Source: a virus
Taxonomy: Duplodnaviria > Caudoviricetes
Virus record (IMG/VR): IMGVR_UViG_3300011438_000025
Coordinates: 1 to 37,344 of that record
Reading direction: 5' to 3' (one strand)
DNA length: 37,344 nucleotides
In this document: positions 2,650 to 37,067 of the stretch, one piece after another
Numbering within the stretch: the stretch's first letter is position 1
Layout of the letters: each line of letters opens with the position of its first letter
The notes under the pieces: generated by a model
What the model was told of the DNA's origin: nothing
The model's database searches: none
Seen by the model: only the letters and a program-made list of their open reading frames with translations
Made by a program: the position numbers and the translations under genes

Positions 2650-4461
2650 TCAGCCTTCAGCCTTCTCTTCGAGCATATCCGGCAAAATATCCGTCAGCGT
2701 CGCGCAGAGCACCTGCATCGCTCCGCAGTCGCGGGCGTGGTTGTTCCCCGAGGGACACACCCACACATGCTTGATCACGTGCGTGAATTTGTTCTCTTTG
2801 CGTTTCTTGTACTCGCTGGCCATCTGGCGGCGGTATTCCTTCTCGAGCTCCGTTTCGTCCAGGCCCGCGGGGCCGATCCATTTGCCGTTATCGATGATGG
2901 CTTGGAGGCGGTCGCCCATCGTCGGGCGGGAGAAGCGGATCAAGGGCGCCTGGCGGCGGCCGCTGCCGGCGGCGCCGCTCTCGGGATCGCCATAGACAAG
3001 CTCGGCGTAACTGTGTTGCACTTTCTTGCCGCTCTTGGTGCGGTGAAAGAAGAAGACTTCCTCGCCGCTCTCGCCGGCGACGCCCTTGGCCGCGATCCAG
3101 CCGTAGCGAATGCAGGCGGCGTAAACGCCGTTGTCGCCCTTGGGCTTGAACCCTGAATCGATGCAATGATGATTGCGCTGGACCTTGTGCTTCTCGCGGA
3201 TCTCCTCGAGCTCTGCGAACGAATAGGCTTTGCCAAACGCCAGGCGCCGGACCTCGGGCGCGCGGGACCACGCACAGACGACATACCAAAACACGTCTTC
3301 TTCCTGGCGGTCCGACGTCATGAAACAGCCGGCTTCGTCGGGCCACGTGCAGTCGACCTCATATACGGCGCTGGCGAAGGCGCGGGAGTTTTCCATGAGG
3401 CCGCGTTCGCTCTTGGGCTCGGCCGGATATTTCTGAAAGAATTGGATGAGCGGGGTCGCCACGCCCTTTTTGTAGGCGTTCATCGAGCTGAGGAAATCTT
3501 CGACCAGCAATGCCCAGGAGCGGGTGATGAGCGCCGAATAGTGGAAACTCTTGTGGGCGCGCAGGGCGTCGTGATTCTGCGTGAGATACTTGCCGGTGCG
3601 GTTCCATTCGGAGCGGTTGCGCGTGGTGTCGATGTGGGGGTGGCCGCATTTCTCGCACTCGAAACGGATGGTGGGAATCGCTTTGGGGATGTCCCAGAGG
3701 CCGGAGGGAAGTTTGTGCACGTCCCACACCAGGCCCCAGCGCGTTCCATCGGCGCGGTGATGGGACCAGAGGGTATCCATGTAGTGATCGCATTTCTCGC
3801 ACTTCACGAACCATTCGTCCTGGGAGCCGGCGCGTTGGAGTGTATCCTGGTCGTCGTCCTCTGTGCCGCCTTGGGAGATGTTTAGAACTTTCGAGTTGCG
3901 TAATTCCTCAAAGTCTCCGAGGCGGCCCATCGCTTCCTTGTGGCGGCCGGCTTCCCAGCCCCAGAGCTCATCGTTGACCATGTAGCGGACGCCCTTGCCC
4001 TGGAGATTTGAAACGGCGCTCCCTTGCACGTAGAGCGGCATGCCGTTGCTGAAGATAACTTCGCCGGTTTTCTTGTGGTGGCGATTGGCGGGGAAGAGCG
4101 CGTCGACGGGCGGACAGTTTTCCAGGACGAAGAGCAGGCGCGATTCCCAGTGTTGATCGGCCATCTCGTCTTTCCACCAGTTGAACATCATCGGGCCGGG
4201 GTCGTTGGCGATGATCCAGGGCAGCCAGATGTCGGCCAGCAGTGTCTTCCCCCCGCGGACGGGCGCGCGGACGGTGACGGTCCGCACGTGATCGTCTCCC
4301 AACGCATCGAACGGGCCGATCAGATGGCGCGAGTCTTCGACGCGGAAAAGCCCGGTGCGTGTCAGGACGGGCGGGAGGGTGACGTGTTCAGCGGCCCATT
4401 CGTAAATCGGCCGGCGGTCGGGTGTGGAATAGGCGGAGGCGAAGGAGGCGCGCAGGGACAC
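2650..4461 (-). CDS. Terminase large subunit (lambda GpA family)
   Basis: 603 aa. Walker A APVRGGKT, Walker B YMVNDE, CxxC pairs (CEKC twice), nuclease motifs IDSGF and NHARDC. Confidence 0.92.
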   Translation of the reverse strand: MSLRASFASAYSTPDRRPIYEWAAEHVTLPPVLTRTGLFRVEDSRHLIGPFDALGDDHVRTVTVRAPVRGGKTLLADIWLPWIIANDPGPMMFNWWKDEMADQHWESRLLFVLENCPPVDALFPANRHHKKTGEVIFSNGMPLYVQGSAVSNLQGKGVRYMVNDELWGWEAGRHKEAMGRLGDFEELRNSKVLNISQGGTEDDDQDTLQRAGSQDEWFVKCEKCDHYMDTLWSHHRADGTRWGLVWDVHKLPSGLWDIPKAIPTIRFECEKCGHPHIDTTRNRSEWNRTGKYLTQNHDALRAHKSFHYSALITRSWALLVEDFLSSMNAYKKGVATPLIQFFQKYPAEPKSERGLMENSRAFASAVYEVDCTWPDEAGCFMTSDRQEEDVFWYVVCAWSRAPEVRRLAFGKAYSFAELEEIREKHKVQRNHHCIDSGFKPKGDNGVYAACIRYGWIAAKGVAGESGEEVFFFHRTKSGKKVQHSYAELVYGDPESGAAGSGRRQAPLIRFSRPTMGDRLQAIIDNGKWIGPAGLDETELEKEYRRQMASEYKKRKENKFTHVIKHVWVCPSGNNHARDCGAMQVLCATLTDILPDMLEEKAEG

Positions 4462-7686: not shown

Positions 7687-7927
7687 TGGGACGATTTGGG
7701 ACGATTTTGAGGGGCTAAATCGGGTTTTGGAGGGGGTTTTCGAGCTCTCCGAAATTGCGCTAAAAACGCTGTAACGCGCGTAAACCCTAGGGAATAAGGC
7801 AGATTCGGGCAGCGCGATCAGCAGGAGCGTATAGGGTGGGGAACCCTTCGAAGAATTCACGAAAGCCCTATGTTTATTAGCGAAATTCAAGGGGGAGGAT
7901 ATTTTGTGTGACAGTTTTGGGACGAAT
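7687..7927. other. Putative attP region with integrase arm-type repeats
   Basis: TGGGACGATT tandem at 7687 and 7697; related TGTGACAGTT at 7907 and TGGGACGAAT at 7918. These flank a ~170-bp non-coding stretch at the integrase 3' end. Confidence 0.55.
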
Positions 7928-9061
7928 TTCGAACCATTTCCGCGCTTCCTCGGGGGTCGTCAATTCAAGATAGCTTTTGTGGATCACGCTCGGACTGTTG
8001 CCGGCCTCCAGCGCCACTTGGGCGATATCCTTGATCAACGCTAGGCGGTAGGAAATGAAGCTGTGGCGAAGACCGTTGATCTCCCAGGGGAAGCCGAGCT
8101 GGCGCGCAAGGGCGGTTTTAAGCGCGCTTGGGTTGCTGTGGCCGCAGACCTCGCGGGTGAGTTCAGACCAGGGCAGGAGCCATTCGGCCAGGTTCGGCAA
8201 AATGGGCACGGTGCGGGTGCGGCTGGTCTTGGTGATCTCGCTCGAAAGGTAGATGTAACCCTTCTCCCATTTGAAAGCGCTCCACTTGATGCGCTGGATT
8301 TCTTCGCTGCGCAATCCGGCGAAGGCGCCGATCGCCAGCACGGGCAGAAAGCTGTTTTTGCATTCTGTGAGCAAGAGGCGCATTTGCTCCGGCGTGAAGA
8401 GGCGGACCGCGCGGCTTTTCAATTGCACCGGATGAATGCCCTTGAGCTCCTCCCACTCCGCTGGCAAATATTTGCGCTCATTGGCGAACTGAAACAGGGA
8501 GGCCAGCGCGCCGCGGTAATTGTTCCAGGTGCGGGCGCCCACATTGAGCCCGTTGAGCCAGGCCACCAGCTCGGGCCGGCGCACACGGTTGATGGGCAAT
8601 TGGAAATCCGAGGCGAAGCGGCCCAGGCGGGTGTCGAGGTCGCGCAGATGATAGCTGCTCAACTGCTGGCGCTTTTTCTCGGCAAGGAAATCTTCAAGGA
8701 CAGTGCTGACCAGCGGGCTATCGGCCAGGCGCTGGGCGGTGTCGACAAGCCACCTGGCCCTACACTCTTTCGCCGCATCGATGATATCCTTGTCCGTGCC
8801 TTCAAGAATTCGGTTGGCTTCCTCGGCCTTCCAGGCTTGCACATCGTTCAGGCGGAATTTGGCGCTGCTGCCGTTGGCCATCATGACGGCGCGCTGCTGA
8901 GCATAGAGCAGCGCGGCGGGTTTGCTCGTGAATTTGCGGCGGTGGGTGTGGCGACGGCCGCCGAAATGATCGCGCACTTCGTAGCGGATTTTCCCGCGCC
9001 ACATCGAGGGATAGATCTTCACGCGGACGCTGCCCGCGCGGATGGCGATGGGGGCGCTCAT
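7877..9061 (-). CDS. int: Tyrosine recombinase / phage integrase
   Basis: 394 aa. Catalytic motifs AGLRSEE, TKT, LRHSF, AGNS, HKSY. No IntI-specific insertion visible. Confidence 0.93.
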   Translation of the reverse strand: MSAPIAIRAGSVRVKIYPSMWRGKIRYEVRDHFGGRRHTHRRKFTSKPAALLYAQQRAVMMANGSSAKFRLNDVQAWKAEEANRILEGTDKDIIDAAKECRARWLVDTAQRLADSPLVSTVLEDFLAEKKRQQLSSYHLRDLDTRLGRFASDFQLPINRVRRPELVAWLNGLNVGARTWNNYRGALASLFQFANERKYLPAEWEELKGIHPVQLKSRAVRLFTPEQMRLLLTECKNSFLPVLAIGAFAGLRSEEIQRIKWSAFKWEKGYIYLSSEITKTSRTRTVPILPNLAEWLLPWSELTREVCGHSNPSALKTALARQLGFPWEINGLRHSFISYRLALIKDIAQVALEAGNSPSVIHKSYLELTTPEEARKWFEIRPKTVTQNILPLEFR

Positions 9062-11404: not shown

Positions 11405-12193
11405 GTGAGCAACAAACTCATGACGGACTACTGGAAAAACGGTCCTTCTTCCCCCACCGATAACATCGTGCTGATCGCCCTGGCAAATTATGCGGACGAG
11501 AAGGGGGTTTGCTGGCCATCGCTCTCCAAGCTGGCCAGCCGAACACGATTTTCGGAGAGAACAGTCCGCTACGCTTTGCGGTCCCTGGAGGAGCAGCGCT
11601 TTATAAGCAGCACTGAGCGCTACGGAAAACACGGTGTTCGGATCTCCAGTCGTTACCAACTGCACCACTCGGAGGAGCTGGATTTATGGGACGAAGGCCA
11701 ACCGGAGAGGCAAAAATTGCCTATGGGGCACGACGCGCCGGGTGAGGGGGCACGGCAGGGGAGGGTGATGGGGCACGACGCGCCGGGAGATGGGGCACGG
11801 CAGGGGAGGGCATTGTACACCCCAGAGTACACTCCATTAGAATCCCCAGTACTTTCTTCAGGTACCCCGTCCGTACGTACGGAGCCCCCGGAAGCCGAAA
11901 CAAAGAAAAGGGGGAATGGGATTCCAGCCACCAGAACCGAAGCAATCGAATGGGCAGCGATGGAGAACGTCCCGGCAGAATTTGCCGGGGAGATATTCGA
12001 CGATCTGGAGGGGGTTAATTGGATCGACTGGCACGACCGGGCAGTCACGAACTGGAGAAGCCATATTCGGTATCGCTGGAGCCGATCCCAGAAAACCAAG
12101 AGCGCTTATGGAAACGGCAAAAAGCATGACGGAAGTCCTGACCGGGATCAATTTACCTACGCTGGCCGGGCACGGCGCAACGGAGGCAATTGA
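11405..12193 (+). CDS. Phage replication initiator (N-terminal winged HTH)
   Basis: VLIALANYADEKGVCWPSLSKLASRTRFSERTVRYALRSLE is an HTH_36-like motif. Has internal repeats and precedes a DnaC-like gene. Confidence 0.85.
   Translation: MSNKLMTDYWKNGPSSPTDNIVLIALANYADEKGVCWPSLSKLASRTRFSERTVRYALRSLEEQRFISSTERYGKHGVRISSRYQLHHSEELDLWDEGQPERQKLPMGHDAPGEGARQGRVMGHDAPGDGARQGRALYTPEYTPLESPVLSSGTPSVRTEPPEAETKKRGNGIPATRTEAIEWAAMENVPAEFAGEIFDDLEGVNWIDWHDRAVTNWRSHIRYRWSRSQKTKSAYGNGKKHDGSPDRDQFTYAGRARRNGGN
11723..11810. repeat. Iteron-like direct repeats (probable replication origin)
   Basis: 45-bp unit ATGGGGCACGACGCGCCGGG..GGGGCACGGCAGGGGAGGG present twice. GGGGCACG at 11725, 11747, 11770, 11792. Confidence 0.75.
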
Positions 12194-12797
12194 GCAAGCG
12201 CAGCCAACCGCGGAGAGGCCACGGCCAGGCTGGAAGGCATTCACCTTCGGCCTGGTCGTGAAGCATCCCGAGGTCAAACACATGGTGGAACAGGCCAAAA
12301 TATTCGTTTGCCGTGCGCTTCGGAATCGGCGCACTGATCCCACGTTGCTCGTGATCACCGGAAATAACGGCAATGGCAAAACGACCGTGGGCAGTGGCTG
12401 TTTTACCTGCTTTGCACAATGGTCCATTGATGCCTATTGCAATGGTTGGTGGCGCACTGATGCCCCAAAGGCGGTCTGCCTAGAGTGGTCGGAATTGGCA
12501 GGGACCAAGCCCGAGGAACGAGATGGGGCGTGGCGAGATTGCATCGAAGCGGACTTCCTGGTGCTGAATGATGTGGGCTCCGAGCCCAATGAGATGAAGA
12601 GCGGAGTTGCCGGAGAGAATCTGAGGTTGATGCTTGAAGCGAGGCTAGGTCGATTCACGATTATCACCATGAATTTTCACCCAGAAGACTGGGTCGGTAA
12701 ATGGGATGCGCGGGTAGAAGATCGCTTGTATAGACGGGCGCAATTGATCGAGCTGCCGACAGCCCCGAGCTGGTGGCGCGCGAAGGGCAAATCATGA
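12108..12797 (+). CDS. DnaC/IstB-like ATPase (helicase loader)
   Basis: Walker A GNNGNGKT, Walker B FLVLNDVG, TIITMN, RVEDRL. Start re-assigned to ATG 12108 (12126 also possible). Confidence 0.85.
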   Translation: METAKSMTEVLTGINLPTLAGHGATEAIEQAQPTAERPRPGWKAFTFGLVVKHPEVKHMVEQAKIFVCRALRNRRTDPTLLVITGNNGNGKTTVGSGCFTCFAQWSIDAYCNGWWRTDAPKAVCLEWSELAGTKPEERDGAWRDCIEADFLVLNDVGSEPNEMKSGVAGENLRLMLEARLGRFTIITMNFHPEDWVGKWDARVEDRLYRRAQLIELPTAPSWWRAKGKS

Positions 12798-13399
12798 GCA
12801 CTGGTATGGCGACCCGGCCCCGGCGACTTGTTAGGCCCATCGCTGTGCTGTGCTGCAAATCGACGAGTCACTATAAGCGCATGGACGGTGTTGAGTGCTA
12901 CGATGCTTCGCGCGACGTGAGCACGTTCGACGGTGGGATGCCAATCGTGGCCCATCCCCCTTGCCGCTCCTGGTCGGCCTTCTGCGCCCATCAGGCAAAG
13001 CCGGTGCCAGGCGAAAAGGAACTCGGGCCGCTGTGCGTGGAATGGTTGCGAAAATGTGGCGGCGTTCTCGAACATCCAGCCCACTCGAGGCTATGGGATG
13101 CCTGCAAGCTCCCGCTTCCTGGCCGGAGCGATGGGGATCTGTGGACGATTGCCGTCTGGCAGTCCTGGTGGGGCTATCCGCTGACAATCAAAAGGACCTG
13201 GCTCTGCTTTCATGGAATCTCCAAGCGCGACATTCACACGCCGCTCACCCTACGCGGGCAAGGTGGCGACAAACGATTGTGGAGCGTCGGTTCGACATCC
13301 TGGCGAGATCGTTCGACTGACGAATTTTGCGCGTGGCTCGTGGAAGCTGCGCGACGGTGTTGGCCGAACGACCGGACTGGCAAATCTAATGAGCACTGA
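12794..13399 (+). CDS. Putative C5 DNA cytosine methyltransferase-like protein
   Basis: IVAHPPCRSWS (PC motif), GGVLEHP, KRTWL. ATGA overlap with the dnaC-like gene. Confidence 0.6.
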   Translation: MSTGMATRPRRLVRPIAVLCCKSTSHYKRMDGVECYDASRDVSTFDGGMPIVAHPPCRSWSAFCAHQAKPVPGEKELGPLCVEWLRKCGGVLEHPAHSRLWDACKLPLPGRSDGDLWTIAVWQSWWGYPLTIKRTWLCFHGISKRDIHTPLTLRGQGGDKRLWSVGSTSWRDRSTDEFCAWLVEAARRCWPNDRTGKSNEH

Positions 13400-13934
13400 G
13401 AATCAACCGGACCGAAAGACAATCGTGGCGGCATTAGTAGAAGTGGCCCGCGCTGCGCACGCTCTCGCGGATAACACGGCAGATGACCATACAATTCCAG
13501 CAATCCCAGAAGGCGCGCTCCTATGCGACTCAGGCGACATGGACAAACTCTCACAAATGTTGGACGTGCTCGGCCAGTGGCCGGATCCACCCGGCGAATG
13601 GGCGACCGGACCAAGAAAGGCCGAACACTGGTATAGCGAGAACGCTGAACAATCTGAGACGCAATCGCCGGGCTCACTGGAGCGCGTCGTTAGCGAAGAA
13701 CGAATATTGCAACTGTCCAACGATCTCAACGAAGGGATCGAAAGCGGCAGCATCAAGGAATGGCGCGCGGTCGCGCTCTACTTTCGCACCGAACTGGATA
13801 AGCTTACTCCTCCCAGGTCGTCTCTCGCCGCGCTGACAATCGCAGAGAAAATGCGGTCTCAAGCAATGCTCGAAATCGCAGCCTGGGTAAAAGCTCAGAG
13901 CGACTCCGAACTCAAAGGCTTCTATGAATCCTGA
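13389..13934 (+). CDS. Hypothetical protein, probably two cassette ORFs fused through a decayed attC
   Basis: Starts MSTENQPDRK. The internal peptide SENAEQSETQSPGSLERVVS is encoded by attC-like arms at 13638-13695. Confidence 0.6.
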   Translation: MSTENQPDRKTIVAALVEVARAAHALADNTADDHTIPAIPEGALLCDSGDMDKLSQMLDVLGQWPDPPGEWATGPRKAEHWYSENAEQSETQSPGSLERVVSEERILQLSNDLNEGIESGSIKEWRAVALYFRTELDKLTPPRSSLAALTIAEKMRSQAMLEIAAWVKAQSDSELKGFYES

Positions 13935-14217
13935 AAACAAAATTGGCCGTCCTCCGCTTCCAAGCGGCGAGTCGGCAGCGGGGCAGGCTGTTGGCTCAAG
14001 CGACTTGTTAGCCTGCCCCTTTTGCGGCGCCATACCCAAAATCTGCGAGATGAGATACATCAACACCGGGCGGCTCTATGGATACAGGCTCAAATGCGGC
14101 ACGTGCGGACTTGGGGTGAAGGAGCAACCCGTGTGCTGGCCGGCTGGGAAAGAAAACGAGGAAATGCTCGAAGCCAAAGTTGCGTTGGTGAAGCGGTGGA
14201 ACACGCGAGCAGGCTAA
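13924..14217 (+). CDS. Lar-like zinc-ribbon protein (restriction-alleviation family)
   Basis: LLACPFCG...CGTCG...KRWNTRA pattern. N-terminus AVGSSDLLA is encoded by an attC arm; stop TAA lies inside GGCTAAC. Confidence 0.75.
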   Translation: MNPENKIGRPPLPSGESAAGQAVGSSDLLACPFCGAIPKICEMRYINTGRLYGYRLKCGTCGLGVKEQPVCWPAGKENEEMLEAKVALVKRWNTRAG

Positions 14218-14350
14218 CGCTCCGGATCAGCGACCGGGCGAGCAAAACCGGAAACTTTTATGAATACAGAAATCATTGAACAAGCAGTCACCGTCACCGT
14301 TGCGACCACCGAGGCTAAGCCCGGTTCGCTGCATCCTTTTCTTGTTCGGG
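14212..14350 (-). other. attC-like site
   Basis: Minus strand reads CCCGAAC-AAGAAAA-GGAT(G)CAGCGA(A)CCGGGC...GCCCGG-TCGCTG-ATCC-GGAGC-GTTAGCC: two extrahelical bases and an unpaired spacer. Confidence 0.8.
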
Positions 14351-14532
14351 CGAATACGAATACTTCAAAATGTATCTCGTGTGCTCGCGACTTTGAATTT
14401 GTGCCGTTGCGGATCGGCGACCTACTGTATGTGGACTCCTCGGGCCGAGAGGTGCGATGCAAAAAGGAAATAGCTCCAACCATCTGTCCCAAGTGTCTGC
14501 GGACCTGTAAATGCAAAGATGGCAGACCATGA
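14260..14532 (+). CDS. Cys-rich hypothetical cassette protein
   Basis: 90 aa, motifs CISC and CPKC. ATG lies in the loop of the 14212-14350 site. Confidence 0.65.
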   Translation: MNTEIIEQAVTVTVATTEAKPGSLHPFLVRANTNTSKCISCARDFEFVPLRIGDLLYVDSSGREVRCKKEIAPTICPKCLRTCKCKDGRP

Positions 14533-14540
14533 AAACCTGA

Positions 14541-14659
14541 GCCCGAACAAGAAAAGGAATGCAGACAACCTGGAGCGAAGCGGAGTGCCCGCGTTTGAAT
14601 CCAATCCACACCTCCCGCCGCTTCACTCCAGGTTATCTACATTCCTTTTCTTGTTAGAC
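14541..14659. repeat. Long attC-like hairpin with 38-bp arms and no bulges
   Basis: AACAAGAAAAGGAATGCAGACAACCTGGAGCGAAGCGG pairs with CCGCTTCACTCCAGGTTATCTACATTCCTTTTCTTGTT, with three mismatches. Confidence 0.8.
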
Positions 14660-14812
14660 GGCAAATGAGCATCGATCACTCAACGCTGCCGAGCATTAGC
14701 AACGGTATCCAGGCCATGAACCTCTACGACCCTCAAGAGCGGCACTCATTGGCTGCACCGCTTGGTTGGAGCGCCCGGCTCTGGCAGAGGTCAAAATAAA
14801 TGAAAACAGTTC

Positions 14813-14840
14813 TTGCAATAGCCAGCGTTGGGTATAGAGT
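14813..14840 (+). promoter_or_regulatory. Sigma70-like promoter inside a cassette (probably leaderless transcript)
   Basis: TTGCAA-N16-TAGAGT with an A-rich upstream tract, ending 6 nt before ATG 14847. Confidence 0.5.
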
Positions 14841-14846
14841 GAAGGC

Positions 14847-15110
14847 ATGAAAACAAACCTGACAAATGCACAGATAAACAAGGCGATGGAATCCGGTGCG
14901 CGTGGCGCGTCTGAATACTTCGATGCCTGCGGCAAGTGGATCAAAGCCAACTGGGAAAACCTCGTGGAACTCCACAAGGCTTTCGAGTCCGAGACGAACA
15001 GCGAAATGGATCGCAGCGTGTTCTGCTCTAAAATGTTCAATGAGACGAAAGAAGGCCGCGCCGCTGCTGAAAAGTATCTGCGCCCGATTCTCAACCTCTC
15101 ACGCAACTAA
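14847..15110 (+). CDS. Hypothetical protein
   Basis: 87 aa ORF directly after the internal promoter. Confidence 0.7.
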   Translation: MKTNLTNAQINKAMESGARGASEYFDACGKWIKANWENLVELHKAFESETNSEMDRSVFCSKMFNETKEGRAAAEKYLRPILNLSRN

Positions 15111-15111
15111 A

Positions 15112-15360
15112 ATGAACTGCCCACACTGCGGAAAACCAATCAACGCGGGCGCGCTGCTCGGAAGCGTCTCGACGCCCGCCAAGACTCGCGCCGCTCGCGC
15201 AAATGCAAAACTCGGTGGCTGGCCGAAAGGAAAGCCACGCAAACCCAAGCGCGCACTCCGGCGCTCCAACGACCCAAGCTCAGCGACCCGGCCCGCTGAT
15301 GAAGAAAATAATCAGCCTGTATCAACGGAACTACGACGGCGATCGCCTAGTAAGAAATGA
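15112..15360 (+). CDS. Small basic protein, putative DNA-binding/antitoxin-like
   Basis: MNCPHCGKPINAGALLGSVSTPAKTRAARANAKLGGWPKGKPRK. Starts 1 nt after the previous stop and reads through the next attC arm (SNDPSSAT). Confidence 0.65.
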   Translation: MNCPHCGKPINAGALLGSVSTPAKTRAARANAKLGGWPKGKPRKPKRALRRSNDPSSATRPADEENNQPVSTELRRRSPSKK

Positions 15361-15877
15361 AATCGTGCCGGGCGCCGAGTGGGTGGCTGCCGGTGAAGGC
15401 GTGGCAACTCGTAAGTACGACGGCACGTGCTGCATGGTGCGCGACGGCAGTCTGTACAAACGTTACGACGCCAAGCAAGGCAAGGCACCTCCGCCAGGAT
15501 TCGAGCCAGCGCAAGACGCCGACTCGACAACTGGACACTGGCCCGGCTGGATGCCGGTCGGTGACGACAGCGGCGACCAGTGGCATCGTGAAGCGTTGAA
15601 CGTGGCCGGCGGACACCTGCACGACGGGACATACGAACTCATCGGGCCGAAAGTGCAAGGCAACCCCGAAGGCCGTCCGACTCACACACTCATCGCGCAT
15701 GGATGCGATGTGCTGGACGCCCCACGGACTTTCGATGGACTGAAAGCGTGGCTGGCGGCTCACAATATCGAAGGCATCGTATGGCATCACCCCGATGGCC
15801 GCATGGTGAAGATCAAGGCGCGCGACTTTGGCATAAAGCGAGTGGGCTCCCCCGCGTTGGCTTCAGCGCATGGTTGA
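15299..15877 (+). CDS. ATP-dependent RNA ligase-like nucleotidyltransferase (DUF5565-like)
   Basis: MKKIISLYQRNY start; motif I TRKYDGT, YELIGPKVQGNP, EGIVWH, MVKIK. Confidence 0.75.
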   Translation: MKKIISLYQRNYDGDRLVRNEIVPGAEWVAAGEGVATRKYDGTCCMVRDGSLYKRYDAKQGKAPPPGFEPAQDADSTTGHWPGWMPVGDDSGDQWHREALNVAGGHLHDGTYELIGPKVQGNPEGRPTHTLIAHGCDVLDAPRTFDGLKAWLAAHNIEGIVWHHPDGRMVKIKARDFGIKRVGSPALASAHG

Positions 15878-15929
15878 ACGACGCGGCGCGCCATGCTTGG
15901 CCTAACGACAGAGATCAGCGACCCGGCCC

Positions 15930-16094
15930 ATGAAAACTGACGAAACGCTCACTCGTGATGAAATCAACTTCCTGCTTTGGTGTGTTGGATTTGCGGAAGG
16001 TCGAGCGCGGACTGAGGAACCGCGTGACAAGTACGTCCGGTCTCATTGTGATGCTGCCCGGAACAAACTGATGTCCATGACTGCCGACGACTAA
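15930..16094 (+). CDS. Small hypothetical protein (54 aa)
   Basis: Below the ORF-track cutoff: MKTDETLTRDEINFLLWCVGFAEGR...MTADD*. ATG follows an attC-like arm directly. Confidence 0.6.
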   Translation: MKTDETLTRDEINFLLWCVGFAEGRARTEEPRDKYVRSHCDAARNKLMSMTADD

Positions 16095-16098
16095 AGCA

Positions 16099-16205
16099 GC
16101 CGAACGACAGAGCTGAGCCACGCGGAACCACACCATGAAAGAAACTGATATCGAAGCGGCAAAGCAAGAGCGCTCGTCCGCGTTGGCTCAAGCGCCTTGT
16201 TCGGC
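16099..16205 (-). other. attC-like site
   Basis: Plus strand reads GCCGAAC-GACAGA-GCT-GAGCCA-CGCGGA...TCCGCG(T)TGGCTC(A)AGC-GCCTT-GTTCGGC. Confidence 0.8.
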
Positions 16206-16428
16206 TGCCTCTACGCTCTCCGGACTTCCTGATGATGCGCTCGAAATTGTGTTGGCTGAATACCGATATTGGAGCCAAGCAACTTCGGTGGAGGTATCAA
16301 TAGGGGCCACGGCAGCGGCGGCTAACATCTATTGCGCCCTTGCGGGCATCCATCGAGCGCCGTGGCATCCCAAATTGGCGGGGGCTGAGCAGTCGAACGA
16401 CCCAAGCTCAGCGACAGCCAGCCAATGA
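16135..16428 (+). CDS. Hypothetical cassette protein
   Basis: 97 aa. ATG in the attC loop; both ALAQAPCSA and the C-terminal SNDPSSAT are encoded by attC arms. Confidence 0.65.
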   Translation: MKETDIEAAKQERSSALAQAPCSAASTLSGLPDDALEIVLAEYRYWSQATSVEVSIGATAAAANIYCALAGIHRAPWHPKLAGAEQSNDPSSATASQ

Positions 16429-16485
16429 AGCCACGACCTGAAACCAAAGCGGACACTGGCTGTTCGCTGGAGCGCATGGTTAGGC
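16392..16485 (-). other. attC-like site
   Basis: Plus strand reads GTCGAAC-GACCCAA-GCT-CAGCGA-CAGCCAG...CTGGCTG(T)TCGCTG(G)AGC-GCATG-GTTAGGC. Confidence 0.85.
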
Positions 16486-16697
16486 CACGGATAATCACGC
16501 TCTCCGAGAACGTCCTGCAAGACGAGCCTCTGTCATTCATGGTGTTCGCTTACCAATCAATGGAGGTAGACTACATGGTCTTCCCGGAAGAACTTGACGC
16601 CCGCGACTACGCGATGGAGCAAGAGGAAAAAGCAAACGCTCCAGAAGACTCATGGCCGATTTACGCGCTGTGGGCATCGGAGTGGCCTAACAGGTAA
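16425..16697 (+). CDS. Acidic hypothetical cassette protein
   Basis: 90 aa. ATG in the attC loop; GCSLERMVRP comes from the arm; ATGA overlap with the previous gene. Confidence 0.65.
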   Translation: MKPRPETKADTGCSLERMVRPRIITLSENVLQDEPLSFMVFAYQSMEVDYMVFPEELDARDYAMEQEEKANAPEDSWPIYALWASEWPNR

Positions 16698-16939
16698 TAT
16701 ACGGCCTATTGGATGCCTTTAATTACGGCAGATTTTCGCAAGCTGTTCGCGCTCAAATTGCCGGTGGAATATTGGAAAAGGAAAGGCTGAGAACACCGCG
16801 TGCAAAGTCCGCTGGAGAATCTGCCGATGACAGAGGGTGCTACAGCCCCACGACCCAGCCGAGATCCTCGACGATGATTGCCATCGGCAACATAAAAAAA
16901 GTTCACCCCACGTCGCGGCTACACGGCAAAGCGAAGGAA

Positions 16940-17013
16940 AAGGCTGAAGGCTGAAGGCTTAAGGCTAAAGTCTGATCAGACTTCAGCCTTTAGAATTTAG
17001 CCTTCAGCCTTTT
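16940..17013. repeat. Inverted heptamer arrays around palindrome AAGTCTGATCAGACTT; probable bidirectional terminator
   Basis: (GGCTGAA/GGCTAAA)n - GTCTGATCAGAC - (TTCAGCC/TTTAGCC)n at the point where early and late transcription converge. Confidence 0.8.
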
Positions 17014-17015
17014 CT

Positions 17016-17303
17016 TCAGACGCACTCGACCTGGAGGTAAACGCTGGACTTCGCGCAGGCGGCGGCCGCCTCGGGGAAATTGGTCTTGAGCAAGGTCGAA
17101 TCGATCCCCGTCCGCATTTTCTCTTTCACGAGGGCTAGAAGGGTCGCGTTGTGTTTGATCGAGCCTTCCTGGTTGTCCACGTATTCGAGGATGTTGACCT
17201 TAAGTTCGGCTTCGCGTTCTTCGGTCTCTTTTTTGAGGGCCCGCACTCTGACCAGTTCGGCGATTTTTTCGCGGATGTCGGGGGTGGCCTGTTTTTGGAG
17301 CAT
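17016..17303 (-). CDS. Hypothetical coiled-coil protein (resembles C-terminal part of YqaJ-like phage proteins)
   Basis: 95 aa from ATG 17303: LKKETEEREAELKVNILEY...RTGIDSTLLKTNFPE. Confidence 0.6.
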   Translation of the reverse strand: MLQKQATPDIREKIAELVRVRALKKETEEREAELKVNILEYVDNQEGSIKHNATLLALVKEKMRTGIDSTLLKTNFPEAAAACAKSSVYLQVECV

Positions 17304-17307
17304 GGTG

Positions 17308-17399
17308 AGGTTCAGAGGTTCACGGTTCAGCGGTTCACGGTTCGAGAGGCCCCTCCGAGTCAACCGTTGAACCTCTGAACCATTGAACCGCTGGAACCC
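17308..17399. repeat. Inverted 7-8 bp GGTTC/GAACC tandem repeats
   Basis: GAGGTTCAGAGGTTCACGGTTCAGCGGTTCACGGTTC ... GAACCTCTGAACCATTGAACCGCTGGAACC. Same family at 4705-4742 and 24780-24817. Confidence 0.75.
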
Positions 17400-17400
17400 C

Positions 17401-18594
17401 TTAGAAATGCGTTACTACCGCGCGGAACGTTCCAGAGGCAGGGTTGATGCTCCCTGACGAATAATTGTTGAAGCGGACGGTGACGGTGTTGGCGCTGCTC
17501 ACGTAGGCGGTGAAGCAACTGTTCGCATTCACGCTGCCGCTCGGAACGCCGATTTGCACCGGATCACCATCGGCGGCGCCGGTCACCGTAATTGTCAGGT
17601 CCGTCGAGAGGAGCGTGGTCGTGCTGCCGAAGTCCAGGGTCGCGGTCGCACTCATGACTTTCGCGATCGCGGTTCCGCCTCCGATTTTCAAGGTGCCCAG
17701 CTCCGCGTTGGCGTCGGCGCTGTTGTCGGCCAGGCGGAACTTGAGCGACGTGCCGCTGCGGATGAGGGCCGGGAACGTCGCGGCCGTCCCACCGAACATC
17801 AAGCGCGAGAAATCTGTTTGCGCATCGTTGGACAGGACGATGACGCCGTCGCTGTCAAATTTGATGCTGCCACGGCCGGTCACGTAGTAGAGACCGCCGG
17901 CGGCAACCGTGAAATCGGTGGCGATGACGGCTCCGGCGTTAAAGGTGGAGGTTCCGGTGATCGGCGAGTTGACGATGGGTGTGGAGATGATCTTTGCGAA
18001 TTGGTTGGTTCCGGTCCAGACCTTGCCGCCCGCGATGGCGGTTTGCTCGGTGGCGTTGTTCACGAAATTGGAATTCACAACGGCGGCGGGCGCGATGCTG
18101 TTGGTCGAGTAAAGCGAAAGCGCGGTGGTGAGGAGCGAGGCCTGGTTGGTCCGATCGCTGGCGGGCAGGGGCATGCTGGACATCGGCACGCGGATCGCTT
18201 GCAGGACGGGCACGGTCCCCGTCGAGAGCGAGATGGTGCACCAGGTGGTCCCGGTCAGGCTCGCGGCCATGCTGCCGCCCAGGAGCGTGGTGAGCGTGAT
18301 GCCGTTGGTTCCGGAGCGCTCGAGCAACAAGTTGTTTGCGAATGGATAGGCGGCGAGATGGTTGAAGAGGTTCGTCGCGACGGCGCCGATTGAGTTAGTC
18401 ACACCAATCTGTGTGGAGACGGTCGAGACGGGCTGGGTTTTCCAGGTGCGGGTGACGCCGTTGACGACCAGGGTGTCGTTGTTGGCGGTGGCGGCGACGA
18501 TGGTGATCGTCGCGGTGATGCGGTCGAGAGCGGACGCCGGAAAGGCTAAAGGCTGAAGGCTAAAGGCTAAAAGAATCAGACGGAGCGAGCGCAT
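17401..18594 (-). CDS. Tail fibre-like protein with N-terminal signal-peptide-like sequence
   Basis: 397 aa, Thr/Ser/Gly rich. C-terminal SATATLDFGS...AYVSSANTVTVRFNN..INPASGTFR is typical of fibre/spike C-termini. N-terminus MRSLRLILLAFSLQPLAFPASA. Confidence 0.7.
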   Translation of the reverse strand: MRSLRLILLAFSLQPLAFPASALDRITATITIVAATANNDTLVVNGVTRTWKTQPVSTVSTQIGVTNSIGAVATNLFNHLAAYPFANNLLLERSGTNGITLTTLLGGSMAASLTGTTWCTISLSTGTVPVLQAIRVPMSSMPLPASDRTNQASLLTTALSLYSTNSIAPAAVVNSNFVNNATEQTAIAGGKVWTGTNQFAKIISTPIVNSPITGTSTFNAGAVIATDFTVAAGGLYYVTGRGSIKFDSDGVIVLSNDAQTDFSRLMFGGTAATFPALIRSGTSLKFRLADNSADANAELGTLKIGGGTAIAKVMSATATLDFGSTTTLLSTDLTITVTGAADGDPVQIGVPSGSVNANSCFTAYVSSANTVTVRFNNYSSGSINPASGTFRAVVTHF

Positions 18595-18640
18595 GGTGTT
18601 TTTTTGGTTTTAGCCTTTAGCCTTTAGAATTCAGCCTTTC

Positions 18641-19222
18641 CTACGTAATGGGCGTGACGAGCAATTCGCCGCTGACGATCGCGACGTAATGGAGGGAGCC
18701 GTCCGTTTGATCGATGAAGATCATTTGGGTCGTTCCGGCTTTGGCGGCGTAGAGAGCGGCGGCTTCGTTCTTGCCCAGCGCTTCATCGGCCGGCGTGGCG
18801 GGAACGGTTGTGGGTGTCGCCAGGCGATTGCCGAGCGTGACGGTGAAAAGGCATTTCCAATAGGCGCTGCCGCTCAGGATCTCGAACTCGAGGTCTTTGG
18901 TGACGGGCGGAGTCAGCGCCAGGATCGCGGCGACGTTCAACGCCAGGTCGCCTTCGTGCACGTCACCGTTGGCGACCAGGCTGACGGAGTTGAGCTCGGA
19001 GCTGCCGGCGACGCCGATGGTGGCTTTTACCGAGGTTCCGGAGCCGGGGATGGTCGACAGGGCGACGGAGCCGCCGGCCGGGTTTGGCTTGGTGAGGGTG
19101 ATGGCGAAAGAGATGGTCTCGCCGATGATGAACCCTGGAAGAGTAAAAGGAGAATCGACAATCGAGCTTTTCGAGAGCCGTTTGGTGGCAGTGTTGATGG
19201 CGAATTCAAGAGGGACACCCAT
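18641..19222 (-). CDS. Putative baseplate/tail structural protein
   Basis: 193 aa, beta-rich, within the tail module. Confidence 0.55.
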   Translation of the reverse strand: MGVPLEFAINTATKRLSKSSIVDSPFTLPGFIIGETISFAITLTKPNPAGGSVALSTIPGSGTSVKATIGVAGSSELNSVSLVANGDVHEGDLALNVAAILALTPPVTKDLEFEILSGSAYWKCLFTVTLGNRLATPTTVPATPADEALGKNEAAALYAAKAGTTQMIFIDQTDGSLHYVAIVSGELLVTPIT

Positions 19223-19303
19223 TGAGGGAGGGGGGCGAAGTCAATGCTGAAGGCTGAAGGCTGAAGGCTAAAGGCTGATCAGACTTTAGCCTTTAGCCTT
19301 TTC

Positions 19304-23950: not shown

Positions 23951-23974
23951 TGGGGACGCGGGGGAGTCAACGGG

Positions 23975-24042
23975 GTAGCTGCCGACGTCAGTCGGTGGGC
24001 ACTTTAGATCGAGTCAGACCACCGACTGACGTCGGCAGCTAC
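23975..24042. repeat. GTAG-type REP hairpin
   Basis: GTAGCTGCCGACGTCAGTCGGTGG and CCACCGACTGACGTCGGCAGCTAC form a perfect 24-bp inverted repeat with GTAG/CTAC ends. Confidence 0.85.
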
Positions 24043-24048
24043 GCGCGT

Positions 24049-24774
24049 TTAGTGGCCGCCCACTCCGGCGCGATCATGGGCGCCGGCGATCGCTTTAATC
24101 AGATCGTCGCGGAGTTTGCCGGTTTTCCATTCGATCGCCTTTTGCATGGCCTGGGTTTGCACGGCGGACATTTTGCCGAGCTGCGTGTCTGCGATGCGGA
24201 TGTCCATGATGACTTTGGCGGCTGGGTTCCAACCTTTCTTGGCGGGTAACGTGCCGGCTTTGCTGCCGGAGTTGCTCCAGTGGGCGACGCCGCGGGTGCC
24301 ATAAAACTTGTATTTCACGAGCGGGTTGAGGGTCCGGATGATCGGAAGGAAAACGGATTTCATGTAACCGACGCTCGACACGGCGCCTTTGAGGAAGCGG
24401 GACGAGGCTTTGCGCATCGCTTCCCCGTAAAGACCTTTGAGGCCATGTTTATGGCGCCAGGCCTGGGTGATCAGATCGACGCGGCGGAGTTGATCGCGGG
24501 CACGGCCGGCTTTGCGTGATTTGCCGCTCTTGCTGCGGGTGAACTTCTGCGCGAGGACCTGGGTGAGATGCGCTTTGATTTCTTTGCGCTTGGCGGCGGG
24601 CATGCCGGTGCCGCCTTTGCCGCCGGTGTAGGGAGGCGTTTCGTCGTAGGCTTTGACGCAGACGTCGAGGATCGCCTGGTTGATCATCTCGGGGAAAAGT
24701 TTGTCCGGCAGCTCGGCGTAGAGGGCGCGGATCTGGGCTTGCAGGCGGGTGGTGTCTAGGGTGGCTTCGATCAT
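24049..24774 (-). CDS. Putative tail completion/neck protein (basic)
   Basis: 241 aa, Lys/Arg rich, in the head-tail cluster. Confidence 0.55.
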   Translation of the reverse strand: MIEATLDTTRLQAQIRALYAELPDKLFPEMINQAILDVCVKAYDETPPYTGGKGGTGMPAAKRKEIKAHLTQVLAQKFTRSKSGKSRKAGRARDQLRRVDLITQAWRHKHGLKGLYGEAMRKASSRFLKGAVSSVGYMKSVFLPIIRTLNPLVKYKFYGTRGVAHWSNSGSKAGTLPAKKGWNPAAKVIMDIRIADTQLGKMSAVQTQAMQKAIEWKTGKLRDDLIKAIAGAHDRAGVGGH

Positions 24775-27042: not shown

Positions 27043-30000
27043 TTAGAACGGAGGCCCCGTCAGCCAGCGATTCGGCGTTTTCGATTTGATGTAGTTGGCG
27101 ACATTTTCAAGTTGGTCGTAATTGCCCGGCAAACCATCGGTGCCGTTTGACCAGGTGGTGTACATAATCCCAATCCAACCTTGCATGCCTTGTGCCTCGG
27201 CCAGCGCTGCGAGGGTGAACCAGTTGTCGATGTTCGCGGCGTAGTTCGAGCCGGCGTCGTAATAGACAGCAAAGATTTGGCGGTTGCGCTGTTTGGGAAA
27301 GCTCGGGTCCAGGCCGTCCCAGAATTTCATGTTGGCGGTCGAGTTGTTATTGAACCAATTAAACACGATCGCGTTTCCGGAGAGGCCCAGCCAACTGCCG
27401 GTCAGATCCCCCTTGTCCATGAAATACAGGGTCGTTGCGTTGTGGTAGGGATCGAACATGTCGTTCCAGAAATAGCGTTCGATGTTGGGATTGACTGCGT
27501 TGATGACGCCCTCGACTCCGTGCACGAAGTTGCTTAAATACTGGCCCATCGTGAGATTGCCGCAGGAGGGGTCCCAGTTTCCTACTCTAAGTTCATTGGC
27601 CCTGACTGCCCAGGCCGTGGGCGCCATGCGTGAGTTAACGAGGCTCGCGTTGGTCGCCAGGACATCGAAGAACTCGGGATTGCAGATCGTGCCTGGAACG
27701 GTGAAGAGCTCTGCTGTGTTGCCCAGTTCATACCAGGAAACTTTGAGGCTGGCTCCCGCTGAAATGGTCGATCCCCCGGGAATGGTCAGAGATTCTGTCC
27801 CTACGACATAATCCGAGCCCTCGGTGTAAGTGGGGCTGCCGGCGTAAGCTTTGACGACGATGGGCGTGCTCGACCTGCGAATGGTCTGGTAAAGCCCGGT
27901 TTCGGTGAAGGTCACATCATCCATCCAAATCAGTCCGGTCGCGTTGGCGGCGGACATGACATAGAGCTTGATCGAGGATTGCTCCAGGCTGTTGATGTCG
28001 ATCACGTATTGAGTCCAGTCCTGCGTGGAGCCAATGATCGTGGAGGTCCCGAGGCCGCCGTCGCGATTGCTCCAGAGAATTCTGCCGTTGCCGCTGTTGC
28101 CCAGGACATAAAACTTGATCGAGCCAGGAGACGTGTAAGCTGAAGTTTTGACCCACACTCCAACCTTGTAGCAACGGAAGGGTGTGACAGCGATGTCTTG
28201 ATAGACCCGTCCCTTATTGGGGTTGATCCCGGTGTTCTGCAATCGGACTGAAGCGGCTCCACCGTGTTTGATGGAGGTATCGATAATCGTGACTGTGCCC
28301 GGATCATCGACCGTCCAGCCCGTCGGCTGATTGCCGGAGAAGGTTTCAAACCCGCCGTTGACCAAAACCGGAACAGGGTCGCCCACGGGCGAAGCGGTTC
28401 CACCGCTGCGGACGAACTTCGTGTCGATGACCGGGAAGGCCTCGCGCAACTCGACGGGCGCGGTCGAAACGGCCTCGCTCATGCTCAACGAATACGGCGC
28501 TATAATCATCCCCAGCGAGTTGGCTAGATTCTTGATGGCGGTGAGGTTTGCCAGACCAGTCGCATTGGGACTCAGCGAAATCATGTTGGGATCTTTGAGA
28601 ACAATTCCGTTAAAGCCGACGGCAGCGCCTCGACGCACGACATTGGTCAATCGGCTGTAGAGCGCGGTCGTGTTCAGACAATTGTTGTCCGTCTGGTAAA
28701 AGATGAAGCGGCGGCTCAAGTCGTTTGTCGTCAGCGCGGGCGATGACGGCGGATAGAGGCTCGTCCAGTTTTTGGCGGGCCAGATGGTCTTGCACCAATC
28801 GAGGATTTGATTCTGCAACGTGTTGTCGATCTTGAGGCCGGTGTTGGCTCCGAGATTGTTCCAGTAATAGGAGCCTCCGCTGTGCGGCGTGAACGAGGAG
28901 ACGATGCTGTCGCCGAATTTCACGCCGTCGCGGTTGTCGACCGGGACATAAGCAGCGGTGGTGAGTGCGGCGGTGGTGGCGTTGGTGAAGGTGTAATATT
29001 TTGAGGCAGTCCAGCGTTTGTTTTCATAGAGCCAATTGCGCAGGAATGCTTCGATGACCAATTTGCGTGTGGCGGTCGGTGTGCCGGCCCAGAAGGCCTC
29101 GAAGTCGGAGAAGACGAGCGAGTCCGGGTTGGCGGTGGTCCAGGGGTTCCAGCCGCCGGAGGTCCAGCGGTCCGGGCCGTAGGTGGGGGCGTTGGCCTGA
29201 ATCTCTTTGACCTTCCAAAACGTGAACAACCCTCCAAGTGGGAAGTTGGGGGTGAGATTCTGCAGGTCCTTCAGAATACCTTCCACGTAGGGCCAGTCGA
29301 TAGGAGTTTGGTGCGTTTGGTAGAAGATATCCGGCGAATGGTTGCCGTAATCGATCAAGAGCTGCACCTGATACCAGGCCTGGGAGAAATATTTAAACGT
29401 GGCGGTAGAGTTGTTGTTGATGCCGTGGTTCGTGAGGGACAGGCCGAGGATGTTGGGCGAGGCGTCGAAGTAGAGGCGCTTGGTGTATTGGGTGCGCGGT
29501 TCGGCGGCTGCCTGAAACAAACCGGCGGTGACGGCGAGGTTCTGCAAATCAAACTCGTTGTGCAGTTCCCACATCTTGGTGAGCTGCCAGAGGGCAGTGG
29601 CGTAGGCTTTGCGCGCGGCGGCGATCGTGCCATGTGAGGATTTGGGCGAGATGGAAACTTGATAGGGCATGCCGGAGTCGGTCCCCTCGAGGACCCAGCC
29701 GGCCAGGATGAACTTGGAGTTTGCGAGCGACGCGGCACTGCCTTTCACGAGCGTGTTGCGGAGGTACTGCGTTCCGACGGCCGCGCCGTTGCCCCCGCCG
29801 TCGTACTGCGTCATGAGCTTGCTGCCCGACGCAATGAAAGCGTTGCTGCCGAACGCATCGAGCGGATGAATGCTCGGCAGCCAATGATTCCAATCGGGGA
29901 GCTGCATCGCGATCCGGACTTGCCGGACATTGGCGTTGTTGGTCAGAGTGATGACCGTATTCGTAACGACACTTCCAAAGAGATCGCTGATGGTCAGTTG

Positions 30001-36800: not shown

Positions 36801-37067
36801 GTAACCTATAAGCTGGTAGCCGGTAGTCGTGTTGGTCGCGGGCATGGCGCGAAGGGCGGCCATGTTCGGTACCGTCAGCAGGTTCGTGACGAATCCAAAT
36901 TGTGAATCGAGCGTTGAGAAATTTGTGTTGGCGATCTGCAAGGCGGTGCGGATGCGATCGCCGGTCATGTCGTTGGCGGAGGCGCCGACGTTGATGCGCG
37001 TCACCGCGGGGAAGGCTGAAGGCTGAAGGCTGAAGGCTAAAACAAGAGAAAGGAGGATCGCGCGCAT
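33861..37067 (-). CDS. Tailspike-like beta-helix protein (putative depolymerase) with signal-peptide-like N-terminus
   Basis: 1068 aa. Virion-attachment-like motif INVGASANDMTGDRIRTALQIANTNF; GYLSANDGGGGTF; YGAVADGFTDDTRAVQDAI (pectate-lyase-3-like); many IxNNxI repeats. Confidence 0.85.
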   Translation of the reverse strand: MRAILLSLVLAFSLQPSAFPAVTRINVGASANDMTGDRIRTALQIANTNFSTLDSQFGFVTNLLTVPNMAALRAMPATNTTTGYQLIGYLSANDGGGGTFYVDPLGIENDDLGTVITPNNNVGRIKRRLENTDVYPQWFGGLVNNATIQSAINYTSARGQGSIWITADYPIDPVTNKITMRSNCSLIGAPGGGLHFEGLQTASWALLTVPAGVTNASIANLKLRGRLETPGSTNNTGYLIDLGAVTNFTIGGIQARDWYTAYFSPLDGKAFENLQVFDANWLDTVLGYGAVADGFTDDTRAVQDAIHHKQLFNGKVFFPRTPNPFQLCSTWVTNGSVILSGDQAVIEQRYRNPTEGTLAHLSSIFTITAHNTVVEGFVLNQAGLFPTAETENNTGYCPAINVHLATNVVIRNNLFNQGTGKAISNGGGSYMQILNNRFVKSGITFGVGNRLDWLFNEATFPSRDGVYRSPLAPLVQGNTFIGSNPNKICVLFSASPDFKFLDNTMIDMDTPTGVIVAYSGDAGFTDANGTNIYNYPGLIRGNTISGSFGINGAIYVRINTPTSDYVQTGFVVTNMYSSIVIENNQIRGTGVGIELNAAPGTVVRNNDVRVTSSPLWWEGNSTGLVVDGGHYESTLAGLGNTLPSSESFLRPPIMKNMVIRNCRIVTPPGEEYAMRNVEPIHYENLAIENVTFDFSGAAGSGTPPCILQFTASTGFIKITDCTFNITNAMNKRTAVLMTGASADIEFSRNTIVAPAGVERRGVTLSGRKVRVHDNDVGRIDITQTPDLLLTRNYIPGYADSESPLVITTTGRAIITDNVITNNSTVAAICADIGVTNGVFANNTVSGNSSSDMVRSTLGRLLVHNNVILNAGAGYDYPTALGTGTLADTVEERALHIDMADQTGYGITLHRNGSPGTLGISQNNAFGASDRDTQYYVWPDEAIYHAGHAFYVHAAATATNAFIYGFGMNGSQQFILNGQLYFQTAGQGLHIIEGSNARMGTSTLSSGTVTIANTSIETNTRIFCFPKETGTYNGRLRVTARVAGTSFTVASSDAGDSVAFDWLLVGVAP

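Follow-up and report, generated by a model that had tools for sequence, protein, structure and literature searches.

The window analysed here is the whole of the virus record IMGVR_UViG_3300011438_000025, and the element in question is an array of short genes and integron-type attC hairpins that begins directly 3' of a DnaC-like gene. The window encodes a tailed phage, with portal, terminase, tape-measure, tyrosine integrase, O-like initiator and DnaC-like loader genes. In lambdoid phages the position after DnaC is where accessory genes are placed. A textbook integron, for its part, is bacterial; its genes lie upstream of non-coding attC sites and their expression is highest at attI. The features of the array and its surroundings are collected in Table 1, with all positions given in the coordinates of the window.

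Table 1. Features of the array and its setting (aa, amino acids; ORF, open reading frame; attC strands are those of the top strand)
Feature	Position	Strand	Remarks
Record IMGVR_UViG_3300011438_000025	1–37,344		Duplodnaviria; Caudoviricetes; linear, 81% complete; whole record is the window
O-like replication initiator	11405–12193	+	5' of the array
Four iteron-like repeats	starts 11725, 11747, 11770, 11792		inside the O-like gene
DnaC-like loader	11916–12797	+	stop overlaps ATG of first cassette gene
Cassette gene, phrog_12600	12794–13399	+	attC arm reduced to stub GTT 12830–12832; closing core GGCCGAAC 13362–13369
ORF, probably fused from two cassette genes	13389–13934	+	lone right arm inside (GTT 13689–13691), peptide GSLERVVS
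Lar-family restriction-alleviation gene	13924–14217	+	lone right arm about 13983–14016 (GTT 14007)
Complete attC	14212–14350	−	36.7 bits; ATG 14260 in loop
Cassette ORF, 90 aa, no family	14260–14532	+	cores GTTCGGGC (14344) and GCCCGAAC (14541–14548) complementary
Symmetric attC-derived palindrome	14542–14659	none	both arms of R''/L'' type, no bulges; crossed by ORF 14519–14668
Two-gene cassette	14741–15270	+	lone right arm GTT 14765; ORFs 14847–15110 and 15112–15360; closing core 15261–15270
Lone L'/R' attC arm	15261–15294	−	AAC 15268; ATG 15299 directly after
RNA-ligase-like gene, phrog_14301, Pfam RLIG1	15299–15877	+	both cassette borders lost; 3' end is a lone right arm, GTT 15873
Lone left arm and ORF	15899–16094	+	AAC 15904; ORF 15930–16094 (54 aa)
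Complete attC	16099–16205	−	60.7 bits; ATG 16135 in loop
Cassette ORF, 97 aa	16135–16428	+	next AAC read through as Asn; stop on ATGA of next gene
Complete attC	16392–16485	−	78.9 bits; ATG 16425 in loop
Last cassette gene, 90 aa	16425–16697	+	probably the newest; cores pair 10/10; family similarity ends at Pro-Asn, that is at AA|C
attI-like site closing the array	16682–16705	−	crossover at 16690/16691
Possible last codons of a deleted intI, HRVQSPLEN	16794–16820	+	suggestive

An earlier note on this DNA had described hairpins at the three complete sites. Their coordinates were right, and each has AAC...GTT cores, an unpaired 5–7-nt spacer on either side and, as read on the plus strand, a right arm longer by two bases. 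All three possess R boxes with the AAC/GTT core, L boxes, a spacer, two extrahelical bases and a variable terminal structure. In a blind hairpin scan of the whole 37-kb window they scored 13.5 points each; the other matches were 14546–14655 and 23969–24049, both without bulges, and a weak one (10.7) at 33416. The left-arm motif of these sites was found in 44 stretches of viral DNA and at least 131 of bacterial DNA, the latter mostly from Verrucomicrobiota and Planctomycetota (the bacterial set analysed comprised 129 stored loci). Six bacterial loci of the same family carry a true IntI gene (384–440 bits against a cut-off of 265), and the family is therefore attC and its top strand known. A predicted Verrucomicrobiota-type host fits the distribution of the family.

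A covariance model was built from the top strands of 60 of the 113 eligible bacterial sites and was run on both strands, as the earlier note had proposed. It matched the three sites on the minus strand at 36.7–78.9 bits, a match that is not independent of sequence because the training sites had been located with a motif taken from the window; the call of polarity is independent because it is based on the positions of intI and of the genes in bacteria. On the plus strand only 16099–16205 appeared, at 9.5 bits, and the best match outside the array reached 12.0 bits. The stem covaries within the family, 14 of 22 pairs being changed on both sides, a figure inflated by kinship and equalled in none of 500 shuffles. 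A search of Rfam returned no related family, only sub-threshold matches to microRNA-type hairpins. A second AAC...GTT hairpin of the window, with a perfect stem and no bulges (23965–24053), lies between late genes and scored weakly with the model on both strands.

The claim that the canonical attC reading lies on the minus strand and the genes on the plus strand is upheld by this model together with the homology of the plus-strand genes. PHROG families were matched by three of the 12 plus ORFs of the array (phrog_12600, Lar and the RNA-ligase-like protein) and by none of the 11 minus ORFs; four further plus ORFs have homologues, and adjacent plus ORFs overlap at their stops and starts. No canonical cassette, in which a top-strand ORF precedes a non-coding attC, was found in the window, and three genes begin inside their own hairpin because they run opposite to the bacterial cassette strand. 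Among 76 bacterial cassettes of the same attC family (17 of 93 neighbouring pairs having been set aside because their cores were unmatched), 47 had ORFs on the minus strand only, five on the plus strand only and 24 were unclear; among 37 viral ones (14 of 51 pairs set aside) 14 were plus-only, four minus-only and 19 unclear. Candidate ORFs in viral cassettes matched PHROG families in 10 of 50 cases on the inverted strand and in 0 of 40 on the canonical strand. The bacterial cassettes of the family are canonical, and the viral ones lean inverted. One could suppose that a bacterial array was captured backwards and that the plus ORFs are antisense shadows, since GC-rich DNA opens frames on both strands (14 of the 37 viral cassettes) and loop ATGs occur in canonical attC too. 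This is very improbable, and is largely refuted by homology: it is the plus ORFs that belong to Lar, RNA-ligase-like and other phage families and that are coupled by overlapping stop and start codons, whereas the minus ORFs lack PHROG matches. One viral contig (L014) contains attC sites of both polarities inside 4 kb.

The ATGs at 14260, 16135 and 16425 do lie in the hairpin loops, and the arms encode the N-terminal peptides of these genes, as had been claimed. The peptide AVGSSDLLA of the ORF at 13924 is likewise encoded in an attC arm, but this is a right arm without a partner and not part of a complete hairpin. Loop ATGs on the strand that bears the genes of the window are enriched in viruses, being present in 59 of the 80 viral loops and 85 of the 176 bacterial ones; in 44 of these viral and 29 of these bacterial loops the ATG opens a frame that extends 30 codons beyond the GTT. 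The loop ATG was consequently rejected as a phage-specific feature, on account of the bacterial loops and of near-identical ATG-bearing attC sites in canonical arrays. Metagenome contigs contain attC sites that are 96–99% identical to the site 16392–16485 over 89–97 nt, the ATG among them; in L360, L361 and L363 the genes are canonical, and L356 is another inverted array. The site had no match among GenBank phages. These near-identical sites in canonical arrays suggest that phages exploit starts latent in host-type attC. The proposal of a translation start inside the recombination site therefore stands in so far as the ATG moves with its gene at AA|C, but not as a peculiarity of phages.

Some gene families exist with and without the attC-coded N-terminus. 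The bare homologues P0015 and L359 begin where the body of gene 16425 does, and among the relatives of the RNA ligase (40 of 80 inspected, by eye) most have no attC arm. Together with the attC that is near-identical in canonical and inverted cassettes, these families are the basis of a further, tentative reading: phages of Verrucomicrobiota-like hosts might run an integron class of their own, with mirror-image cassettes made de novo where a host-type attC came to stand before an ordinary phage gene and its recombination site thereby became the start of that gene. We regard this as possible but somewhat doubtful.

The integron crossover falls between A and C of RYYYAAC (PMC7439510, available part). 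Given this, a unit of the window starts with the C of one AAC, ends with the AA of the following one and includes the arms, the loop ATG and the gene body, so that a gene takes its start codon and N-terminal peptide along whatever the phase. Across the gene body the two cores, opening and closing, are complementary: in five cassettes 5, 7, 5, 6 and 7 of the 7 flanking bases matched, and the cores of a sixth unit, GTT 14765/AAC 15268, pair 10/10. The cores of the Lar gene also pair 10/10, with the stop TAA of the gene inside the closing core. In viral loci the cores of 51 neighbouring pairs matched better across bodies than within hairpins in 37 cases and worse in 7. AAC cores read through by ORFs of the window are crossed in frame as Asn in six of six cases; crossing of GTT in a single phase was rejected, phases 0, 1 and 2 all being found. 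Both observations are expected if AAC alone is the joint.

Borders in other genomes agree with such units. In 11 of 16 homologues of gene 16425 the conserved body ends at Pro-Asn, after which the tails differ, and the likeness of the DNA to this gene stops at 16691 (L355) and 16693 (L354). In L189 and L351 gene 12794 forms a complete cassette whose end falls at the same AAC, and a homologue of the 14741–15270 cassette in L019 also ends at the same AAC. In a breakpoint test over 52 viral cassettes 25 matches had identical context and five were informative. A unit of ∼460 bp is 100% identical in L032 and L013 between different neighbours, with borders at −2 and +1 from AA|C; it is found in L022 as well, ending there at the contig end. 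L204 and L205 match at the left border.

From the attI end the array runs through two intact attC sites, half-sites, a symmetric site, one intact attC and the stub at 12830; it decays away from attI. Four lone right arms end at a GTT and two lone left arms start at an AAC (Table 1). The ORF at 13389 looks fused because its second half alone is matched by a free-standing 94-aa protein. The RNA-ligase-like gene is an intact cassette with both borders kept in L271; relatives of the Lar gene were sought as loci and none was recovered. The symmetric palindrome has three mismatches, all of them C/T changes, and could result from template-switch correction of one arm; the cassette 14344–14548, left between inverted arms, may be invertible. 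A similar symmetric palindrome lies at about 3500–3620 (window orientation) in L026. Since most attC sites of the window are decayed, the array is only partly shufflable; the description of the array as a phage accessory-gene shuffling system is borne out by IntI-type cassettes and by turnover that breaks at AA|C, but to this extent has to be narrowed.

With so many half-sites, with borders inside loops and with no IntI in the record, the arms might be relics that now offer phage recombinases, or illegitimate recombination, short stretches of homology (boundary sequences), IntI playing a minor part; a RecE-like match at 17016–17363 is weak (E = 1.5e-4). We consider this unlikely, as borders are exact at AA|C although the flanks share three or four bases only, the cassette ends are self-complementary and the bulge geometry is kept. 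Left-arm-only sites are, moreover, about as common in bacterial (31/145) as in viral (10/41) loci, and in this loose test half-sites were dismissed as a phage-specific trait.

No arm follows the AAC at 16689, the last of the array; the sequence there is AT-rich and resembles the attI ends that stand beside intI in bacterial and viral loci, and the site agrees in 21 of 24 bases with the end of a Verrucomicrobia array (L118). An exact search with the 16 nt after this AAC gave 14 viral matches, which look like chance. The description of the array as IntI-less was borne out: a TIGR02249 profile search gave 0 matches in the record, which is 81% complete, and tblastn with eight IntI proteins found no intI in the window among the matches listed, all of which were weak. 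The tyrosine integrase of the window (7877–9061) was ruled out as an integron integrase. Of an intI gene there is at most a nine-codon tail, and no Pc promoter was found at the attI end, where it could not read the cassettes because the genes point towards attI; a promoter scan gave nothing above chance. With three attC sites within 2.3 kb and no intI nearby in the incomplete record, the window is by definition a cluster of attC sites lacking integron integrases (CALIN), with an attI-like end and non-canonical cassettes, and not a complete integron.

Other phages with this layout encode their own integrase. The phage of L020 and L188 has a 330-aa IntI directly after attI on the gene strand (347 bits against the cut-off of 265) and 13 attC sites that match the covariance model, and among 83 viral IntI-like loci hairpins of the same polarity lie upstream in 29 and of the opposite polarity in two. 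In L193 (5989–6249) a phage intI reduced to 86 aa by an internal deletion, which preserves the frame and both ends, stands beside an intact attI-like site and array. Among 599 stretches covered by a scan of viral contigs, 562 encode relatives of the phage IntI; some weak matches may be other tyrosine recombinases, and phage IntI may thus be far commoner than the few published cases.

The earlier note had held that the phage borrows a host IntI, which is one of two options and unproven. It is possible, if rather doubtful, that the phage never had an IntI of its own, possessing only attI and attC and relying on the integrase of a Verrucomicrobiota or Planctomycetota host. Such hosts share the attC family and have attI ends like this one, and canonical arrays contain attC sites nearly identical to that at 16392; the attI–intI stretch of the bacterial locus L112 is resembled by the first 120 nt beyond attI here (5 of 3000 shuffles were as good; one of ten comparisons), and in L027 a cassette and an attI-like end accompany a DnaC gene, the stretch examined showing no intI. 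Against this, a phage-encoded IntI occupies exactly this slot elsewhere, deletion of a phage intI is seen in L193, and phage IntI fall into virus-only clades in a quick tree, which with its six bacterial rows cannot prove phage-only clades. Of 74,642 positions compared, the one at 16797 (RVQSPLE) matched IntI C-termini best and is a possible intI tail (p ∼ 1e-5 per position).

Taken together, the attC family, its polarity, the gene strand, the self-complementary cassette ends and the AA|C borders in other phages make it probable that this is a partly decayed cassette array of a phage-borne integron, with the attC top strand on minus and the genes on plus, its cassettes having likely been inserted at 16682–16705 by an IntI that is now absent. 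IntI would recombine the folded bottom strand, here the plus strand, at AA|C. One cassette would consist of an L' arm, the loop with its ATG, an L'' arm, the R'' core, the gene body and the R' core; the stop of the gene would be the TAA of the closing core or would be taken from the arm of the next cassette after AAC has been read as Asn. The genes are likely transcribed as the tail of the O/DnaC early replication operon. An incoming cassette would be added at the promoter-distal end, and those present for longer would be fixed by deletions of their attC arms; the decay away from attI agrees with this. An integrase gene probably lay just beyond attI in the past, as is seen in L188–L191 and L193; at present only the IntI of a host or of a co-infecting phage could act, on two or three intact cassettes. 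More speculatively, the iteron-like repeats would place an origin in the O gene, upstream of the array, which would make the plus strand (the attC bottom strand) the lagging-strand template and the genes co-directional with the fork. A recombining strand on the lagging-strand template favours folding and excision and is avoided by most sedentary integrons, according to the available part of PMC5371416.

Several observations weigh against this reading. No clear strand could be assigned to 19 of the 37 viral cassettes, and the viral set may include captured bacterial arrays. When the single strands were folded, as had been suggested, 16099–16205 beat its shuffles (z = −3.6 and −4.2), but 14212–14350 and 16392–16485 folded no better than theirs (z = −0.3 to −1.0) and at minimum energy take a form other than the full hairpin; because energy alone favours only 16099–16205, the case is based on family match and geometry and not on stability. 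The attI-like site ranks second of 1050 AAC positions with a profile of 15 sites, a rank that is partly circular because these sites were hand-picked with a pattern resembling the window site, and the L118 genome has no IntI above the cut-off. With all blocks slid, the score of the intI tail was reached by an unrelated one too, for which reason we give a real remnant at 16794–16820 about even odds; an N-terminal remnant was sought in the window and none stood out. The proposed comparison of gene swaps with AA|C gave borders there in homologues of genes 12794 and 16425 and in L032/L013, but some breaks fall inside loops: the RNA-ligase gene breaks inside the loop relative to L271, and L008, although it agrees with L012 and L033 at the right border, has its left break 5 nt before the GTT. 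Half-sites predominate, so deletions or swaps must break inside loops too. No recombination event was seen: neither an excision joint at AA|C nor a circle was present in contigs of two sequencing runs, one of which may be the source of the record, although rare forms are dropped from contigs, and no RNA run was among the holders listed; the joints listed in the run contigs resemble other attC copies of the sample. No close relative of the phage was found, and a search for viral relatives of the DnaC-like gene found none, which left no sister phage to set beside the array.

CALINs and integrons in phages have been reported by Qi et al. (2023; PMC9892861), who found that some phage attC recombine with attI1 by IntI1, with the bottom strand preferred. 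Like these phage CALINs, the window is an attC cluster in a phage without intI. PMC9892861 deals with typical arrays, with captured pieces of host integrons and with one phage that has divergent attC sites; unlike the window, these come, in the available part of that paper, with no account of genes systematically antisense to attC, of loop start codons or of a co-directional phage intI. The CALIN was defined by Cury et al. (2016), who noted intI pseudogenes near 15 of 279 CALINs; as far as the accessible text goes (PMC4889954), these too are attC clusters without a neighbouring integrase, and the 'inverted' integrons described there flip intI relative to attC, whereas the window flips the genes. 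The sedentary chromosomal integrons of Verrucomicrobiota and Planctomycetota (L059, L088, L101, L102, L104 and L112) have the same attC family, a similar attI end and the same intI-to-attC polarity as the IntI-bearing phages, but there the genes occupy the attC top strand and run away from attI, whereas in the window they occupy the bottom strand, run towards attI and extend into attC. A synthetic attC can encode a peptide and still recombine (Nivina et al., 2020; PMC7439510, available part); those sites were engineered, while the sites of the window would be natural and would supply the start codon. Phage CALINs are thus already published, and the inverted layout of gene and attC is new to the literature searched, in which no description of it was found, PMC11023631 having nothing of relevance either; the annotation files of Qi et al. 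(2023) might show inverted ORFs.

Phages appear, then, to use the chemistry of integrons with the gene flipped: the attC carries the start codon, so any order of cassettes would stay translatable, and cargo such as the Lar anti-restriction gene would be read in the early operon of the phage. The window itself is a decaying example of this layout. The origin of cassettes is described as an unsolved question in the available parts of PMC5371416 and PMC8352920. Genes that occur both bare and as cassettes, with near-bacterial attC, make it testable, and if mirror-image cassettes do arise de novo they would provide before-and-after pairs.

Adjoining an attC of the same family in L358 is a 517-aa ORF (120–1673) for a putative group II intron reverse transcriptase. 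Palindromes resembling repetitive extragenic palindromic elements and composed of AAGGCTGA-type units lie between genes of the window at 16937–17014, 18534–18646 and 19237–19300, and palindromes of this type are present in the viral loci L026 and L044 as well. Two long ORFs of the window likely encode host-recognition spikes, namely a 2257-aa protein of Ig, PKD and carbohydrate-binding repeats (27043–33816) and a 1068-aa beta-helix protein with a C-terminal domain of K1-lyase type (33861–37067).

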